The translations under genes and the position numbers were made by a program. A model generated the notes under the pieces. That model saw only the letters and a program-made list of their open reading frames with translations. It did not search any database and was not told the DNA's origin. Below, in pieces: positions 3,700-58,946 of a DNA stretch of 64,000 nucleotides; position 1 is the first letter of the stretch; every line of letters begins with the position of its first letter. Source of the DNA: Dehalococcoidia bacterium (lineage in GTDB: Bacteria; Chloroflexota; Dehalococcoidia; Lucifugimonadales; UBA1127); contig OZ220679.1 in assembly GCA_965116355.1 (NCBI GenBank), forward strand, positions 94,669 through 158,668. The letters run 5' to 3'.

Positions 3700-3754
3700 G
3701 TCGGGGTTCCCCTGCCTACGCAGGGGCAGGCTCTGCCTTCGCAGGAACCCCGAC
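3700..3754. repeat. Two-armed palindromic hairpin-A derivative in the nurA/HAS-barrel intergenic region
   Basis: The outer stem pairs GTCGGGGTTCC (3700-3710) with GGAACCCCGAC (3744-3754). Inside are inner hairpins CCCCTGC-CTAC-GCAGGGG and GGCAG-GCT-CTGCC. Confidence 0.8.
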
Positions 3755-3761
3755 ACGACGG

Positions 3762-5039
3762 CTACACCCAGGGGCGGCGCTTCGAGCGTTGCTTCTGGGA
3801 AGTGTACACGGGCAGCCCACGGCCCTCCAAGGCGCGTTCCACCATGTTTCTGAAGGCTTCACGGTCCGCGCCGGTGACGACGGCCTGCTCGTGCGCCTCC
3901 TGGAGCGCGACGGGGTAGCCCGCGCCGCGCCGCGCGTTGTCGACGACGAGGGCGTGCGTGAGCGCCAGCAGCGCCGGGTCGAGGGCGACCCATGCGGGTA
4001 TCTCCACGCGGCCGATCTCCTCGTCGACGTTGACGTAGAAGAAGTGGACGCGGTGCGGGCCGTAGGCGTCGCGGGCGACGGGCGAGCGGCTGGCGAACAC
4101 GGCTGAGCGCTGGCCGGACGCGAGGGTGCGCTCGAAGAGCTCGCGGTCGGTCAGGCCGTGGGCGGCGTCGCAGCGGCGCAGGCCGGGAACGAGGGCGCGG
4201 CAGTGTGCCTGGCAGTGGCCGATGGGATCGAGGTCGCAGAGGGCAAGGCGCAGCAGGTTCACGACCTCCGCGCTGTTGGGCAGGCTGATGTAGGACGCGA
4301 CGGCCACACCCGTTTCCCCTTCGATTTCCCTCAGGGCGAACGGGGGTGGTGTCCTCTCCCCCTGTCCATAGGACGCGTCCCGGATGCGGTCGAGGGCGGC
4401 GAGAAGGCCGTCGTTGAGGAGGCGCTCGCGGACGTAGTCGGGGTAGCGGCCGCGCGGGGGCAGCTCGCCGCCGAGCTCCCACAGGACGAGCGTGCCGTCA
4501 AGGAGGGCGAGGGTGGGGAGGCCGCTGGCGCCGGCGTCCACGGCGTCGGCGAGGGCCGTCGCCTCCTCGACCGTGCGCACGAGGCCCATTAGGGCGCCCT
4601 CGACGGCTTGCCGGGCCGAGGGGGTGTCCGGGTCTTGCAGGAAGAGTTCGGCGTCGGCGGTGCGGAGGCCCGGGTGGCTGAACAGCTCGGCGTCGGGGGC
4701 GTCGCCGTAGGTGAGGCGGCAACCACCGATGTTGATGAGCGCGCACCGCAGAGGCAGGTGGCGGTTGACGTCGATGTGGGAGCCGTCGGTGGCGACGACG
4801 CTGAAGTCGGCAGGCGGCGCGGGCGTGTCGAAGACCGCGCCGGGCGGTTCGACAGCCTCAGCGGGGAGGAAGGCGAGCAGCCCCTGCGCCGCCTCTACGC
4901 GGTCGTTCAGCGTGGCGGCGTCGGCATCGTGCAGGGCGGCGAGGACCGCGCCCGTGCGGCGGTCGCGCGCGGGGCCGAAGTCGGCGGTCGCGATGGCGGC
5001 GTCGATCTGGGCGGCGGTTCGGTAGAGGTCAAGGGCCAT
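3762..5039 (-). CDS. nurA: NurA-domain nuclease
   Basis: 425-aa ORF with NurA-type motifs VVATDGSHIDVNRH, LLDGTLVLW and GYPVALQEAHEQAVV. It sits upstream of and co-directional with herA. Confidence 0.8.
   Translation of the reverse strand: MALDLYRTAAQIDAAIATADFGPARDRRTGAVLAALHDADAATLNDRVEAAQGLLAFLPAEAVEPPGAVFDTPAPPADFSVVATDGSHIDVNRHLPLRCALINIGGCRLTYGDAPDAELFSHPGLRTADAELFLQDPDTPSARQAVEGALMGLVRTVEEATALADAVDAGASGLPTLALLDGTLVLWELGGELPPRGRYPDYVRERLLNDGLLAALDRIRDASYGQGERTPPPFALREIEGETGVAVASYISLPNSAEVVNLLRLALCDLDPIGHCQAHCRALVPGLRRCDAAHGLTDRELFERTLASGQRSAVFASRSPVARDAYGPHRVHFFYVNVDEEIGRVEIPAWVALDPALLALTHALVVDNARRGAGYPVALQEAHEQAVVTGADREAFRNMVERALEGRGLPVYTSQKQRSKRRPWV
4317..4347 (+). repeat. Module C copy inserted in frame inside nurA
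   Basis: CCCCTTCGATTTCCCTCAGGGCGAACGGGGG. On the minus strand it is read as TPPPFALREIEGETG without breaking the ORF. Confidence 0.8.
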
Positions 5040-5059: not shown

Positions 5060-5089
5060 CGTCGTTCCTGCGAAGGCAGGAACCCCGAC
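5060..5089 (-). repeat. Hairpin module A, the only reverse-oriented copy I found; 4 nt downstream of the GIY-YIG stop
   Basis: CGTCGTTCCTGCGAAGGCAGGAACCCCGAC is the reverse complement of the GTCGGGGTTCCTGCC..GCAGGAACGACG consensus. Confidence 0.85.
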
Positions 5090-5093
5090 GCTG

Positions 5094-5402
5094 TTACATC
5101 AATTCTTCATGCAAGTCACGCCAAGAGGGGTTACTCTCCGCAATCAAGCGCAGTTTCCAAGCCCGCTTCCAACGCTTCAAGGCCTTTTCCCGTGAGATTG
5201 CACTCTCCATTGATTCGTGGACTTCGTACCAAACCAAGCTCTTGATGTTGTAGATGTTGGTGTGACCTTCAACAAAGCCCTCTTTGTGCTGCCAAACTCG
5301 TTGGACAAGGTCTGAGGTTACGCCAATGTATATGGCGCCGCCCGGCCTGCTGGCCATGATGTACACACAGGGAATGCGGGGGCGAAAGGAACTCTGTTGC
5401 AT
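5094..5402 (-). CDS. Small GIY-YIG nuclease superfamily protein (UPF0213/COG2827-like)
   Basis: 102-aa ORF containing GAIYIGVTSDLVQRVWQHK...ESAISREKALKRWKRAWKLRLI (GIY..YIG plus the conserved R/E/K helix). G+C is visibly lower than the flanks. Confidence 0.85.
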   Translation of the reverse strand: MQQSSFRPRIPCVYIMASRPGGAIYIGVTSDLVQRVWQHKEGFVEGHTNIYNIKSLVWYEVHESMESAISREKALKRWKRAWKLRLIAESNPSWRDLHEELM

Positions 5403-5428
5403 GGCGTGACTCTACCATGGTGGGGTTT

Positions 5429-5461
5429 GTCGGGGCCCCTGCCTGCGCAGGGGCGACGGGG
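5429..5461 (+). repeat. Hairpin module A variant 27 nt upstream of the GIY-YIG start
   Basis: GTCGGGGCCCCTGCCTGCGCAGGGGCGACGGGG (stem CCCCTGC/GCAGGGG). Confidence 0.8.
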
Positions 5462-5493
5462 ATGGTGCACCTTTTGATGGAAGTTTAGCGGTC

Positions 5494-5528
5494 TGTTGGG
5501 GTTCCTGCCTACGCAGGAACGACGGGGG
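5494..5528 (+). repeat. Hairpin module A overlapping the 3' end of the DUF433 gene
   Basis: GTTGGGGTTCCTGCCTACGCAGGAACGACGGGGGG. It supplies the last codons (..APVPPVVPA*) of the minus-strand ORF. Confidence 0.8.
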
Positions 5529-5745
5529 GCACAGGAGCCTTCAGAGAGTCCGCTACGTACTGCAGTACGGCTCTGACCTTCCACTCTTCGGCGTCGAACC
5601 ATTCTAGATAGTCCTCCACCGTGGCGCCGCTCTCCAAGTTCTCGAAGAGACTTGACACCGGCAACCGGGAGCCCTTGAACACCCAGGCCCCGCTCACCCT
5701 GCCGGGCACACTCTCAACCGCCGGACACTTACTCCAGTCCGTCAT
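5509..5745 (-). CDS. DUF433-domain protein (antitoxin-like HTH family)
   Basis: VESVPGRVSGAWVFKGSRLPVSSLFENLESGATVEDYLEWF matches the DUF433 pattern (G.P.ikGTRipV..i...l..G.s.eei). I prefer the internal ATG at 5743-5745 (MTDWSKC). The track ORF extends to 5787. Confidence 0.65.
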   Translation of the reverse strand: MTDWSKCPAVESVPGRVSGAWVFKGSRLPVSSLFENLESGATVEDYLEWFDAEEWKVRAVLQYVADSLKAPVPPVVPA

Positions 5746-5873
5746 GCCCTCACCCCGTTTTCCGCTGCGAGCCCTTTCTCCATGCACAGCTCATACCGAA
5801 CGGTCCATTACCCTCATTGTCCAGCACCGCTACGTTCTCGTCTATCGGCGCATCCTCGCCCGCATCCCCTGTT

Positions 5874-5904
5874 CTCCTTTTGATTTCCCTCAAGGCGAAC
5901 GGGG
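5874..5904 (+). repeat. Module C copy abutting the stop codon of the DUF429-like gene
   Basis: CTCCTTTTGATTTCCCTCAAGGCGAACGGGG ends 1 nt before the stop at 5905-5907. Confidence 0.75.
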
Positions 5905-8603: not shown

Positions 8604-8734
8604 GCGCGTTCCTTCGCGAGGGGGTGCGTTCAGGATAGCAGAGGGGGCGGATGCGGAGGAGGGGGCTTTCAAGTCTCCGAGCAGGTGGGCATAATGCGCG
8701 GGTGAATCCATGGACAGGACGGAAAATCAACATA

Positions 8735-9529
8735 GTGCAGAAACGTAGAGCCTCCACCATCCCCATGTTGGCATTGCTGGTGATCGCCATGATTGCCTGC
8801 GCAAGAGCAGAGTCAGAGCCGGTAGCCACAGCCGAACCAGTCGATACTCCAACAACTGAGCCCATTGTGGCCGCAACCGCTGAACCCGCAGCTACACCTG
8901 CCCCGGCAAATGCCGCAGTCCCCGCTTCAACCCCACCGCCTGCCCCGATACCCACATCCGAAGACCTGGTGAGAATGGACAACTTCACGAGCATTTCATA
9001 TAGAGCGCATTTCAATATGACCGACGAAAGTCTCACAGAAAGCGGATACCAAATCACTGCCGACGTAGAAGGCTGGACAACTACCGACGCCGAAAGCCAG
9101 ATATTCGCACGAATAGATATGACCAAGCCTGTCGAGCGGTCGCTCGAGGTCTTGACTCACAACAGCTTTAATGTATATCTGCATGACCTCGATGCGGGCA
9201 AATGGTACTTCATACCCGAAAACTCCGATTCGGGGCCGCTGGAAGACATCTTGCAGTTGTATTTCTGGGGTCTGACGTTCTCAGTCCTGCCGACCTCAAG
9301 CTTCAAGCAAAATGCAGATGGATATGTGGCAACCCAAAGAGACCCGTCATTCGGTATGGTAACAGCTTCATACGACCAAACATACACGCTGAGGAGTGTT
9401 GTCTTCAGCAGCACCGAGGGCGAAGAATGGCTCAACGTGAGCTACTTCGACTTGAACAAACCCCATGACATACGCCCCTACCAGAAGGGGGAGGAGCTAC
9501 CAGAAGACTACTGGGAATCCACGAATTGA
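8735..9529 (+). CDS. Secreted lipoprotein of unknown function (low G+C)
   Basis: Signal peptide with lipobox (VQKRRASTIPMLALLVIAMIAC) followed by a Pro/Thr/Ala-rich linker. The start could be GTG 8735 or ATG 8765. G+C is visibly lower than the neighbours. Confidence 0.7.
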   Translation: MQKRRASTIPMLALLVIAMIACARAESEPVATAEPVDTPTTEPIVAATAEPAATPAPANAAVPASTPPPAPIPTSEDLVRMDNFTSISYRAHFNMTDESLTESGYQITADVEGWTTTDAESQIFARIDMTKPVERSLEVLTHNSFNVYLHDLDAGKWYFIPENSDSGPLEDILQLYFWGLTFSVLPTSSFKQNADGYVATQRDPSFGMVTASYDQTYTLRSVVFSSTEGEEWLNVSYFDLNKPHDIRPYQKGEELPEDYWESTN

Positions 9530-9552: not shown

Positions 9553-10851
9553 CTACCACAGCCGCTCGCCGGGGCGCGACGTCTCGCCGGCGTCCGCACC
9601 GGCGAGCCATGGGTCGTCATCCTCGGCGACGATGAGCTTTTCCGAGCGGATGAGGTGGTAGGGGATGTCCGGGGCGAGGGCGGGCAGGTCGATGCCCTCG
9701 TCGAGGCCCTTGGCGGCACGGATCATGAGCTGGCGGAGGCGGATGATGGCGCCGTCGGCGGAGTAGAGGTGCTCGCGGGTGCGGTCGACGATGGGGCCCA
9801 TGCTCTCCGTGACAGCGTAGTCCTGCTCCGGGTTTGGCGATATGCCCGCGATGAGGGTCGTCCGCTGGGCCTCGCGGTCGATGAGGTAGTCGTTGTCGGG
9901 GCGCTTGAGGCGGCGGCGCGGGTCGGCCGGGTCCATCATCGTGTTCTCCGCGTACGTCGATGCGCGCTCGTCGTCGGTGATGGGGCGGTCGACGTTGCAG
10001 CGGATGAAGAAACGCATGCAGTTCTCGTCGTCCATCGGCACGATGAAGAAGGTGCCGCTGGCGCGGCCGGGGCCGGCGATCATGCTGCACACGGGGAAGA
10101 CGTGGCTGGTGATGCGCAGGTGCCGGTGGCCCGCGTCCGTGGGTCGGATGCCGATGAGCCGGAAGCCGTAGTCCGTGTCCTGCACATCAACCTGGGCGAA
10201 CCGGTACCTGGCAAGCAGGTACGAACGCTGGTTGGCGGAGGGCACCCCCGGCCGGTCCGTTTCGTCAGGCTCACGCCCGAAGTCTTCGTGACGCCGGTGC
10301 AGCGTGCCGAGGTGCGACGAGTCTATGTTGCCCTCTATGCTCTGCAGGTAGTTGCAGTAGACGGGGGCCTTCGCGGCCACGACCTGGTCGACGGGGAGGC
10401 GGTTGAACAGGAAGTCCGGCGGCGGCGGTTGCTGCTCCGGCGGACCCATGTACGCCCAGACGACGCCCGCCGACTCGACGGTGGGGTAGGACGTGGCGCG
10501 CACCTTCTCCTTGAAGCGGCTGCCGGGGATGTCCGAGGGCATGTCGACGCAGATGCCGTCGGCGTCGAACTTCCAGCCGTGGTAGATGCACATCAGCCCA
10601 TCGCGGTTCAGCCCGTAGTAGAGCGACGCGCCGCGGTGGGGGCAACGCTCGCCGATTAGGCCGACGCGGCCCTCGCTGTCACGGAAGGCGACGAGGTCCT
10701 CGGCGAGGACCTTGAGGCGCACAGGATCGCCGTCAGGGACGGGGAGGTCGGCGGAGAGCGCGCAGGGGTGCCAGTAGCGGCGCAGCACGCGGCCCATGGG
10801 CGTGCCGGGGCCGGTGCGGCAGATGAGCTCGTTGTCCTCGCGTGTCAGCAT
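9553..10851 (-). CDS. Rieske [2Fe-2S] non-heme-iron oxygenase, alpha-subunit type (paralogue 1)
   Basis: Rieske motif CPHRGASL..CIYHGWKF, and MLTREDNELICRTGPGTPMG at the N-terminus. The start is ATG 10849-10851. The longer track ORF to 11862 reads through the repeat array. Confidence 0.9.
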   Translation of the reverse strand: MLTREDNELICRTGPGTPMGRVLRRYWHPCALSADLPVPDGDPVRLKVLAEDLVAFRDSEGRVGLIGERCPHRGASLYYGLNRDGLMCIYHGWKFDADGICVDMPSDIPGSRFKEKVRATSYPTVESAGVVWAYMGPPEQQPPPPDFLFNRLPVDQVVAAKAPVYCNYLQSIEGNIDSSHLGTLHRRHEDFGREPDETDRPGVPSANQRSYLLARYRFAQVDVQDTDYGFRLIGIRPTDAGHRHLRITSHVFPVCSMIAGPGRASGTFFIVPMDDENCMRFFIRCNVDRPITDDERASTYAENTMMDPADPRRRLKRPDNDYLIDREAQRTTLIAGISPNPEQDYAVTESMGPIVDRTREHLYSADGAIIRLRQLMIRAAKGLDEGIDLPALAPDIPYHLIRSEKLIVAEDDDPWLAGADAGETSRPGERLW

Positions 10852-10948: not shown

Positions 10949-11351
10949 CCCCCTTCGAGGGCCTCAGGACAGGCTTCGACAGGCTCAGGACGAACGGGAG
11001 GGATGGGGCGCTGGTGAGCGTCGGGGTTCCTGCCTGCGCAGGAACGACGGGGATGCGGGGCTCGGATTGCGCGAGATGTTGGAGGCGGGCGCCCTGGACA
11101 CCGGCTTCCGCCGGTGAAACGGGGAGGGAGGCGCTTCGACAGGCTCAGGGCGAACGGGAGGGATGGGGTGCTGGCGAGCGTCGGGGTTCCTGCCTGCGCA
11201 GGAACGACGGGGTGCGGGGCTCGGATTGCGCGAGATGTTGGAGGCGGGCGCCCTGGACACCGGCTTCCGTCGGTGAAACGGGGAGGGAGGCGCTTCGACA
11301 GGCCTAGTAGGGGATGAGGGTGCCCGCCTTCGACAGGCTCAGGGCAAACGG
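10949..11351 (+). repeat. Composite mosaic-repeat array with module order C-C-A-X-B-C-A-X-B-(C)-C, including ~160-nt tandem units
   Basis: Hairpin A begins at 11020 and again at 11180, giving a period of 160 nt. The two units are near identical, apart from one 1-nt indel and a few substitutions. Confidence 0.9.
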
Positions 11352-43783: not shown

Positions 43784-43817
43784 GTCGGGGTTCCTGCCTT
43801 CGCAGGAACGACGGGGG
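43784..43817 (+). repeat. Hairpin module A, solitary copy
   Basis: GTCGGGGTTCCTGCCTTCGCAGGAACGACGGGGG, between the SDR and cupin genes. Confidence 0.85.
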
Positions 43818-44628: not shown

Positions 44629-44822
44629 CCTTTCGACAGGCTCAGGGCGAACGGGTTTCCCCCATTCTAACCTTCCCCCAAGAGAGAGGAAGGGACTTGG
44701 GCGCCGCTCCGTTTGGCGGGGTTCCTGCCTGCGCAGGAACGACGGGAGGCGTTCGCCCTTCGATTTCCCTCAGGGTGAACGGGGCCGGTTTGTTGGGGTA
44801 CCTGCCTCCGCAGGAACGACGG
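44629..44822 (+). repeat. Composite mosaic repeat C-A-C-A
   Basis: Module C at 44629-44655, A at 44716-44746, C at 44756-44784, A at 44782-44822. The last A supplies the 3' end of the PNPOx-like ORF. Confidence 0.85.
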
Positions 44823-49812: not shown

Positions 49813-50005
49813 CCCTTCGACAGGCTCAGGGCGAACAGGGAAGGTAACAGTGGCCCTAAGGCGGGCATCCTGGATGCCCGCCTTCGCGGGAATGACGGTG
49901 GTGGTGGTCCTGGGTACCGGCTTCCGCCGGTGAAACGAGAGAAGGCGAGGGCAGGCTCCTTCGACAGGGCTCAGGACGGGGTCAAGACGGGATCAGGGCG
50001 AACGG
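49813..50005 (+). repeat. Composite mosaic repeat C-A'-B-C-C
   Basis: Module C at 49813-49839. Variant hairpin GGCGGGCATCC-TG-GATGCCCGCC..CGCGGGAATGACGG. Module B is GGTACCGGCTTCCGCCGGTGAAACGAG. A double C runs to 50005. Confidence 0.8.
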
Positions 50006-50462: not shown

Positions 50463-50858
50463 CCCCTTCGAGAGCCTCAGGACAGGCCCTTCGTCAGGCT
50501 CAGGACAGGCTTCGATTTCCCTCAGGGCGAATGGGGGGCGGGCGTCGCTCCGTTTGTCGGGGTTCCTGCCTGCGCAGGAACGACGGGGGTGGGGCCCCTG
50601 GACACCGGCTTCCGCCGGTGAAACGAGGGGAGGCGGGGGCGGCCCTTCGACATGCCCAGTGCGAACGGGAGGTCGGACGTCGCTCCGTTTGTCGGGGTTC
50701 CTGCCTGCGCAGGAACGACGGGGGCGGGGCCCCTGGACACCGGCTTCCGCCGGTGAAACGAGGGGAGGCGGGGGCGGCCCTTCGACATGCCCAGTGCGAA
50801 CGGGAGGTCGGGCGTCGCTCCGTTTGTCGGGGTTCCTGCCTGCGCAGGAACGACGGGG
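50463..50858 (+). repeat. Composite mosaic-repeat array C-C-C then (A-B-C)x2 then A, with a 135-nt tandem period
   Basis: GTCGCTCCGTTTGTCGGGGTTCCTGCC starts at 50544, 50679 and 50814. Units 1 and 2 differ at 2 of 135 positions. The array ends exactly at the stop codon (50859-50861) of the FtsX-type permease. Confidence 0.92.
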
Positions 50859-55878: not shown

Positions 55879-56238
55879 TTAACCCCGCGCCAGCAGTTCT
55901 TCCAACTTCTCCACGAAGCGTGAAATGTCCTGCAAATGGGAAGCTATATCCCACGATGCAAGCTGCCCCTCATAAAAGTTTGTATGCAACTCCCCTGCCA
56001 CCTGAAAGAGTTCCAAGTATTCGGCAACACCCTCTTCCGACACCAGCCGCCGAATCGAATCATAAAGCTGGTTGTGACGACTGTGGCTCCATCCCCTGGC
56101 GTCTGCCACTGCCTTCAATATCTGTGACGCCGCCCCCCATCCCTTTTCCGACGCTTGTCGAAGGTCATTGCGGGAAAGCTCCTCAAAAGCCTGGTCAAGG
56201 AAAACGCGGCTTTGCAACCGGTATTCGGCCTGGGTCAT
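55879..56238 (-). CDS. PaREP1/PaREP8-like four-helix protein (copy 3)
   Basis: MTQAEYRLQSRVFLDQAFEELSRNDLRQASEKGWGAASQILKAVADARGWSHSRHNQLY....LHTNFYEGQL. Confidence 0.55.
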   Translation of the reverse strand: MTQAEYRLQSRVFLDQAFEELSRNDLRQASEKGWGAASQILKAVADARGWSHSRHNQLYDSIRRLVSEEGVAEYLELFQVAGELHTNFYEGQLASWDIASHLQDISRFVEKLEELLARG

Positions 56239-58888: not shown

Positions 58889-58946
58889 CCACAAGGGCCG
58901 CCCCTACGGGGGGCGCGTGGGTTCCCGCCTGCGCGGGAACGACGGG
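58889..58946 (+). repeat. GC hairpin (GGGCGGCC-ACAA-GGCCGCCC) plus a hairpin-A variant
   Basis: GTGGGTTCCCGCCTGCGCGGGAACGACGGG at 58917-58946 (stem TTCCCGC/GCGGGAA). Confidence 0.7.

Follow-up and report, generated by a model that had tools for sequence, protein, structure and literature searches.

A GIY-YIG nuclease gene bracketed by inverted hairpins in a Chloroflexota-like lineage: a probable Ssn/SRM cassette with a variant hairpin

The closest described counterpart of the locus presented here is the Ssn/SRM system, in which the Neisseria repeat defined as NTS (CGTCATTCCCGCGMAVGCGGGAATCYRG) flanks the gene ssnA (Chenal et al., Nat Commun 2025; PMC11893778). The ssnA product is a 94-amino-acid (aa), single-domain GIY-YIG protein of CDD family cd10448. 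Purified SsnA bound NTS only as single-stranded DNA (ssDNA) and only on the NTS strand, cutting a few nucleotides (nt) upstream, and each of the exchanges Y6A, Y17A and E64A abolished cutting; three more homologues (N. elongata, N. wadsworthii and Wolbachia) cut beside their own repeats, which makes four in all (PMC11893778). NTS-like 'Ssn-related motifs' (SRM) accompanied 71% of the ssnA homologues on one side or more and 42% on both, a homologue was encoded in 81% of the genomes with more than 200 SRMs, and SsnA of N. meningitidis lowered transformation by NTS-bearing DNA (PMC11893778). Here, a gene of this type, called ssn in the following, is described from a 64,000-nt stretch of contig OZ220679.1 of a Dehalococcoidia bacterium; this whole 64-kb stretch is referred to as the window. 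The gene lies between inverted copies of a hairpin repeat, and sequence comparison makes it very probable that the locus is an Ssn/SRM cassette, consisting of an Ssn-family nuclease and its cognate hairpins in a variant sequence. The bracketed GIY-YIG arrangement was already published in 2025, so that its description here repeats a known one and does not define a novel type of element; new are the lineage and the hairpin variant, which lie beyond those of PMC11893778.

The window protein, with 102 aa below the 150-aa bound applied to Ssn proteins, matched Pfam PF01541 (GIY-YIG) over residues 12-84 (E=6.7e-15), with no other Pfam domain. The gene starts with an ATG at 5402 and ends with TAA at 5094-5096. 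The residues predicted from the sequence to be catalytic, namely Y14, Y25, R35, H39 and E72, are all intact. Y25 and E72 are invariant in two family alignments (A1 and A2, with 23 and 44 members), Y14 does not vary in A1 and is conserved at 90% or more in A2, and R35, H39 and N91 are invariant or nearly so in both. The spacing of Y14, Y25 and E72 (11 and 47 residues) is that of Y6, Y17 and E64 in N. meningitidis SsnA (residue numbers as published), and the difference in length corresponds to an 8-residue N-terminal extension of the window protein (94+8=102).

An AlphaFold2 model of the protein (mean predicted local confidence pLDDT 87, predicted template modelling score pTM 0.80) showed a GIY-YIG fold. 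The best PDB folds for this model were UPF0213 protein BH0048, Slx1 and the N-terminal domain of UvrC (Foldseek probability 1.0, template modelling score about 0.5). Slx1 and the UPF0213 proteins (YhbQ/BH0048-type) share the common GIY-YIG core and are the closest solved folds, but sequence identity is just 20-30% and they form separate subfamilies. Slx1 prefers structured DNA; to our knowledge, neither Slx1 nor UPF0213 proteins associate with genomic hairpin repeats. A GIY-YIG homing endonuclease of the I-TevI type was also considered and rejected. Such enzymes combine the GIY-YIG domain with a distinct DNA-binding domain, and their genes reside in introns, inteins or intergenic sites of phages, whereas the window protein is a single domain of 102 aa encoded at a chromosomal intergenic site between a 273-aa gene (followed by a DUF433 gene) and nurA.

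Read on the strand that starts with CGTC, the repeat unit is CGTC-GTTCCTGC-GNAG-GCAGGAAC-CCCGAC, with a tag of 4 nt, a stem of 8 base pairs (bp), a 4-nt loop and a tail rich in C. Three copies surround ssn (Table 1). In coding-strand order, the locus runs from hairpin 5524-5495 and hairpin 5458-5429 through the 26-nt spacer, the ATG, the gene, the TAA and 4 nt to the reversed hairpin 5089-5060. The proximal upstream hairpin is a stem variant in which all changes are compensatory (GCCCCTGC/GCAGGGGC in place of GTTCCTGC/GCAGGAAC). Over 30 nt, the downstream hairpin is complementary to the distal upstream copy by 93% and to the proximal one by 83%, and the tags of all three copies point outward from the gene. 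Folded as ssDNA, the downstream copy reached -11.9 kcal/mol (z=-4.9). The spacer ahead of the ATG may carry a putative -10-like element, TAGAGT; a scan for the sigma-70 consensus gave no hit.

The repeat is abundant in the window. The 24-nt pattern GGTTCCTGCCTNCGCAGGAACGAC, allowing up to 3 mismatches, was matched by 11 copies in 64 kb, 10 of them on the plus and one on the minus strand; the expectation derived from 100 shuffles was 0.00. A looser stem-loop search recovered 14 copies, 13 in one orientation and one reversed, and the ssDNA folding energies of the repeats ranged from -8.5 to -11.9 kcal/mol (z-scores -2.4 to -4.9). A first-pass annotation, made from the letters of the window, had proposed that the gene is bracketed by inverted hairpins and that the copy behind it is the sole reversed module; both proposals hold, the latter also with the looser search (1 of 14). 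Its placing of that copy 4 nt past the stop is likewise right, while the upstream gap, given there as 27 nt, was counted as 26 nt. The remaining hairpins of the window are all intergenic and often lie just past stop codons.

Table 1. Hairpin repeats and associated features of the window (for hairpins, the strand is that of the CGTC or CGTT sense)
Feature	Position	Strand	Remarks
ssn-type gene, single-domain GIY-YIG nuclease, 102 aa	5094..5402 (stop codon included)	minus	open reading frame (ORF) and Pfam
Downstream hairpin, CGTC-GTTCCTGC-GAAG-GCAGGAAC-CCCGAC, SRM/NTS-like	5060..5089	plus	4 nt past ssn stop
Conserved spacer AAACCCCACCATGGTAGAGTCACGCC between upstream hairpin and ATG	5403..5428	minus	similar spacer AGACCCCTTATGGTAGAGTGGCGCC in relative L001
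Proximal upstream hairpin, CGTC-GCCCCTGC-GCAG-GCAGGGGC-CCCGAC	5429..5458	minus (coding)	26 nt ahead of ATG
Distal upstream hairpin	5495..5524	minus	stop codon TAG of the DUF433 gene within its loop
Degenerate or nested hairpin copies right after nurA stop	3708..3727 (region about 3700-3760)	minus	stem-loop search
Two copies, cores 11026-11045 and 11186-11205, in a 159-nt composite tandem repeat	11026..11205	minus	pattern and stem-loop searches
Intergenic hairpin copy	43790..43809	minus	pattern and stem-loop searches
Two copies, cores 44721-44740 and 44798-44817	44721..44817	minus	pattern and stem-loop searches
Copy with canonical A-T stem start, CGTCATTCCCGCGAAGGCGGGCATCCAG	49870..49897	minus	sole window copy fitting the published strict SRM string
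Three copies, cores 50562-50581, 50697-50716 and 50832-50851	50562..50851	minus	135-nt composite tandem array between convergent genes
Intergenic copy, stem CCCGC/GCGGG	58921..58940	minus	pattern and stem-loop searches
CGTT-tagged hairpins	2953-2982, 11092-11121, 11251-11280, 49908-49937, 50596-50625, 50731-50760	minus	

The hairpin bracket is a property of the protein family and not of one locus. A protein search gave more than 5,000 relatives, and among the 120 listed all carry GIY-YIG only and almost all have 93-107 aa (range 88-118). A scan of representative genomes yielded 80 loci with proteins 55-71% identical to the window protein, which span Dehalococcoidia, Alpha-, Beta-, Gamma- and Deltaproteobacteria, Binatia and Nitrospirales. 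For the association with hairpins, 82 genes with enough flanking sequence (55-86% identical) were analysed with a generic detector that requires a GTC tag and a 7-9-bp stem. A tagged hairpin was found at most 250 nt from the gene in 72/82, on both sides in 54/82 and in the outward-inverted arrangement in 48/82 (59%), and among random 290-nt segments of the same loci 1.0% had hairpins on both sides and 0.3% were outward-inverted. When the 150 nt ahead of a gene were compared with the 150 nt behind it, the best inverted repeat was repeatedly a 25-30-nt tagged hairpin, with a recurrent form that reads CGTC...CCAG ahead of the gene and CTGG...GACG behind it. Stems vary by genome (ATTCCTGC, ATTCCCGC, ATTCCGGC, ACCCCGGC, GTCCCTGC and others) yet agree within one locus. 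With the published strict SRM string and a distance of up to 500 bp, at least one SRM was present at 46/76 homologue loci and SRMs on both sides at 27/76, close to the published 71% and 42%. Homologues flanked by such strict SRMs are 57-70% identical to the window protein, and one locus (L024, 57% identity) has the exact Neisseria NTS on both sides.

These numbers bear on the simplest alternative, in which the hairpins are ordinary repetitive extragenic palindromic (REP) or terminator-like elements that flank an unrelated housekeeping GIY-YIG gene by chance. With 14 copies in 64 kb, hairpins are indeed frequent between the genes of the window. However, hairpin density was about 9 times higher beside ssn homologues than elsewhere in the same loci (4.0 vs 0.43 per kb), the outward-inverted arrangement far exceeds its frequency in random segments, and the single reversed copy of the window is precisely the one behind this gene. 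A consensus scan found neither a T-tract terminator nor a sigma-70 consensus site at the hairpins that would fit a terminator or promoter role, and Rfam contained no family for them (one chance match to mir-351, E=0.74). As homologues also bind and cut the hairpin directly (PMC11893778), a chance neighbourhood is highly improbable.

The window locus shares with the Ssn/SRM system a protein of about 95-102 aa that consists of one GIY-YIG domain and has an identical Tyr/Tyr/Glu spacing, the oriented hairpins no more than 500 bp away on either side of the gene (corresponding to NTS-ssnA-NTS), each composed of a CGTC tag, a stem of 8 bp, a loop of 4 nt and a C-rich tail, and the scattering of the same repeat in intergenic DNA, here of the 64-kb window. 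It differs in the host, which is Chloroflexota-like with a high G+C content (GC) and whose phylum is absent from PMC11893778, in flanking stems that start with G-T and have the core CCTGC/GCAGG or CCCTGC/GCAGGG, in the N-terminal extension of the protein and in the strong one-strand bias of the window repeats. This bias is not a family-wide rule; it was rejected as such, since orientations are mixed at other loci. Genes of the window lie nearly all on the minus strand, and together with the 13:1 orientation bias this means that the CGTC-sense strand of the hairpins is the coding strand of their neighbours. As a separate observation, the plus strand is G-rich throughout the window, with a GC skew of +0.06 overall and +0.04 to +0.09 in each 8-kb block, despite the minus-strand genes.

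Several points weigh against the assignment. A PDB sequence search with the protein returned only marginal UvrC and UPF0213 matches and no close solved structure, and no NCBIfam model matched it. The flanking hairpins fail the published search string, HGTCWYN(0-2)YYVSBRHN(0-5)WNVSBRGN(0-2)RNCYNB, with G for W after CGTC and a T/A pair for the V/B stem pair. Neisseria SsnA became inactive when the palindrome sequence was changed and the structure kept (PMC11893778); the specificity of the window pair would then have had to co-evolve. Finally, the upstream hairpin is variable in close relatives, being degenerate in three (L082-L084) and flipped in a fourth (L086), and so an inverted pair is not strictly required. 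As to the search string, it was hand-built from 29 genomes (PMC11893778), so that a mismatch marks a variant and does not exclude membership. One copy elsewhere in the window (at 49870-49897) is almost the Neisseria sequence itself (ATTCC...CCAG). Membership of the locus in the Ssn/SRM family is thus regarded as very probable, and somewhat less confidence is placed in the specific cleavage activity of the window protein, which we infer from its characterised homologues.

If the window protein acts like these homologues, its substrate would be ssDNA, whether exposed at a replication fork, brought in by transformation or conjugation, or formed in the course of recombination and repair. A monomeric protein would recognise the folded hairpin on the CGTC-sense strand only, probably reading the stem sequence, the tag and also the C that directly follows the palindrome. 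The GIY-YIG site (Y14, Y25, R35, H39 and E72 with Mg2+) would then make its cut on the 5' side of the CGTC tag, a few nucleotides away from it. Neither duplex DNA nor RNA nor the opposite strand of the hairpin would be expected to serve as a substrate. Since the tags point outward in the cassette, the predicted cuts lie just outside the gene and on opposite strands; for the other 13 window copies, cutting is predicted on the minus strand. By analogy with Neisseria, the cellular role may be control of recombination with repeat-bearing ssDNA.

The same gene position was found in five related metagenomic contigs (L001, L082, L083, L084 and L086), with Ssn proteins 75-86% identical to that of the window. 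In these relatives, ssn follows a homologue of the 273-aa gene, which itself comes after selB on L001, L082 and L086, and ssn lies ahead of nurA in L001, L082 and L084, the relatives with enough downstream sequence. The downstream hairpin is kept at the same position in all five (5/5). At the site of the variant proximal hairpin of the window, L001 has the canonical stem (GTTCCTGC). One syntenic site in the window and five relatives means that the ssn gene is vertically persistent in this lineage, as REP-associated tyrosine transposases (RAYTs) are. In L086 (1850-1940), the upstream hairpin is oriented as the downstream one, giving a direct instead of an inverted pair. Just past the downstream hairpin, L082 (2576-3900) carries a gene with an rve integrase domain together with a duplicated 5' fragment of nurA and a second hairpin copy, and the hairpin region of this relative may be an insertion target.

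Next to ssn in the window, the DUF433 gene (5509-5787) is adjacent and co-oriented, and hairpin-bearing DNA alone lies between the two. The first-pass annotation had raised, as a second possibility, that without the two upstream hairpins they would be nearly adjacent, like an antitoxin-nuclease pair; hairpin insertions would then have split the pair. However, DUF433 and the extra upstream hairpin are restricted to the window in comparison with the five syntenic relatives, ssn directly follows the 272-aa gene without DUF433 in L001, L082, L083 and L086, and DUF433 is missing from 80 other loci as well: a tblastn search with the DUF433 protein gave no match in 81 loci (80 genome loci with ssn homologues and L001). 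Comparison of the DUF433-nurA junction in relatives thus revealed no conserved adjacency of DUF433 and ssn, and this reading can practically be dismissed. The DUF433 ORF ends within the distal upstream hairpin (5509-5528), where stem and loop encode its last residues PVVPA and the TAG; the repeat therefore supplied the C-terminus of the DUF433 gene.

With a GC of 0.51, ssn stands apart from nurA (0.73), the 273-aa gene beyond DUF433 (0.67) and the pooled flanks (~0.69). The low GC, taken at first pass as a sign of acquisition or mobility, is thus real. However, gene GC was below that of the flanks in 80/83 homologues, with a median difference of -0.10, so that low GC is a family property, and given the synteny in five relatives a recent acquisition is unsupported.

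Hairpins of this kind had been catalogued before as CGTC-tagged REPs (Di Nocera et al., BMC Genomics 2013; PMC3733652). In the CGTC-1 family, a stem of 8 bp with a loop of 4 nt is followed by the tail CCA, and Neisseria dRS3 was equated with CGTC-1; CGTC-tagged REPs were said to 'apparently lack a dedicated transposase', and Chloroflexi were listed only for GTAG repeats (PMC3733652). The window repeats resemble CGTC-1 in the CGTC tag at one end, the 8-bp stem, the 4-nt loop and the short unpaired tail, as well as in their location, which is intergenic, often past genes and sometimes intragenic. They differ by G-T at the first two stem positions of the main family, where CGTC-1 has near-invariant A-T, and by the tail CCC instead of CCA. 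Moreover, they bracket a nuclease gene, whereas no dedicated enzyme was found in PMC3733652. Chenal et al. 2025 does not cite Di Nocera et al. 2013.

A further comparison concerns RAYTs and their REPs, including the REPtron and REPIN arrangements, and the IS200/IS605 elements. RAYTs are thought to spread REPs and REPINs. Common features are a single-copy, vertically persistent gene between inverted copies of an abundant hairpin, strand-specific action on this hairpin as ssDNA, which for the window protein is expected by analogy, and composite arrays like bacterial interspersed mosaic elements (BIMEs). The window enzyme is, however, a GIY-YIG hydrolase and not an HUH/Y1 transposase, and the tag of its repeat is CGTC and not GTAG. 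GIY-YIG enzymes hydrolyse DNA, and we know of none that carries out strand transfer or transposition, which counts against propagation. The first-pass annotation had compared the locus with such a bracket around a nuclease acting on the hairpins; this reading is right as to the bracket, and the proposed nicking of the hairpin agrees with the experiments on the four Neisseria and Wolbachia homologues (PMC11893778), but the idea is not new. In the discussion of that paper, NTS-ssnA-NTS was likened to an insertion sequence, to IS200/IS605 transposases and to REP/BIME elements.

A rival proposal, also raised by Chenal et al. (PMC11893778), is that the hairpin-ssn-hairpin unit is a current or recent mobile element, comparable to a REPtron or an IS200-like element but with a GIY-YIG nuclease, which also spreads solo hairpins. 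This would be compatible with the biochemistry predicted for an Ssn/SRM cassette and adds the claim of propagation. The outward inverted tags resemble transposon ends and the layout is family-wide, 55-70% identity across distant phyla together with gene GC below that of the host in 80/83 fits horizontal spread, some genomes have several copies (L004/L005, L029, L046 and L068), truncated 5' fragments of ssn end at hairpins, and CGTC-tagged REPs came without a dedicated transposase (PMC3733652). On the other hand, the one syntenic site shared by the window and five related contigs shows vertical inheritance, a tblastn search found no second ssn copy in the 64-kb window, and no target-site duplications were seen. 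The two loci L004 and L005, which belong to one Dehalococcoidia genome, were considered as evidence of transposition and rejected: they share about 1.6 kb at 75% identity, and this homology runs well past the hairpins, which indicates segmental duplication. A mobile element is thus rather unlikely. In the same two loci (9750-10650 in each), half-repeat runs consisting of the 5' arm only (CCGTCATTCCCCCC...) surround ssn, and truncated ssn copies, consisting of roughly the first 90 nt of the gene and terminating at an inverted hairpin, lie downstream.

A related proposal assigns Ssn a role as the long-missing dedicated enzyme of CGTC-tagged REPs, which would cut, generate and maintain the hairpins through ssDNA nicking and host repair or template switching. 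Hairpin-ssn-hairpin would then be a vertically persistent replicator like REPIN-RAYT systems, with a hydrolytic nuclease as its enzyme. This proposal, the most novel of those considered, is regarded as rather unlikely.

Beyond the SRM-like hairpins, the window contains other repeats. A second hairpin family, CGTTTCNCCGGCGRAAGCCGGNGNCCAGGG, carries the tag CGTT instead of CGTC; its 6 copies, where 0 would be expected, are all in minus-strand sense. One of them is in frame within the herA coding sequence, in its N-terminal part (residues ...PPVSPAKAGAQG...), and the herA ATG overlaps the stop of the preceding gene. A third module, CCGTTCGCCCTGAGGGAAATCGAAGG, occurs four times, again all in minus-strand sense (4318-4343 within nurA, 5877-5902, 44757-44782 and 50509-50534). 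Its copy in nurA is in frame inside the ORF (...PPFALREIEGE...), and nurA of L082 has other repeat modules at this site with an apparent frame change; differing modules at one site suggest an insertion hot spot in a surface loop. BIME-like composite tandem arrays extend over 10973-11303 (159-nt units, 2.1 copies) and 50523-50858 (135-nt units, 2.5 copies), and each unit is composed of an SRM hairpin, a CGTT-tagged hairpin and a further module. In the pair of hairpins at 3700-3760, one copy has the 5' flank of the reversed and the loop of the forward orientation. Other low-GC islands are a 119-aa gene of the PaREP1 family at 55879-56238 (GC 0.54, Pfam E=3.4e-17) and a stretch of about 0.9 kb at 8651-9529 (GC 0.53) that had no Pfam match.

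Genes of this type are annotated only as 'GIY-YIG nuclease family protein', if at all, and lack an NCBIfam model. Judged by its sequence, the gene of the window could be named as a probable Ssn-type site-specific ssDNA endonuclease, with the most conspicuous hairpin repeat as its putative cognate motif. This would extend the Ssn/SRM pairing to a high-GC, Chloroflexota-like lineage. As the window hairpin lies outside the published search string, surveys based on this motif will undercount such systems. The locus also offers a candidate pair of enzyme and site with a different stem specificity, and new specificities are the main need for ssDNA tools according to the authors of the Ssn study (PMC11893778). 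In addition, two literatures are joined, as the work on Ssn/SRM (2025) and that on CGTC-tagged REPs (2013) concern the same repeats. If Ssn does propagate CGTC-tagged REPs, the lineage described here would be a natural experiment, with compensatory stem changes at an orthologous site and a strict strand bias of the solo copies.

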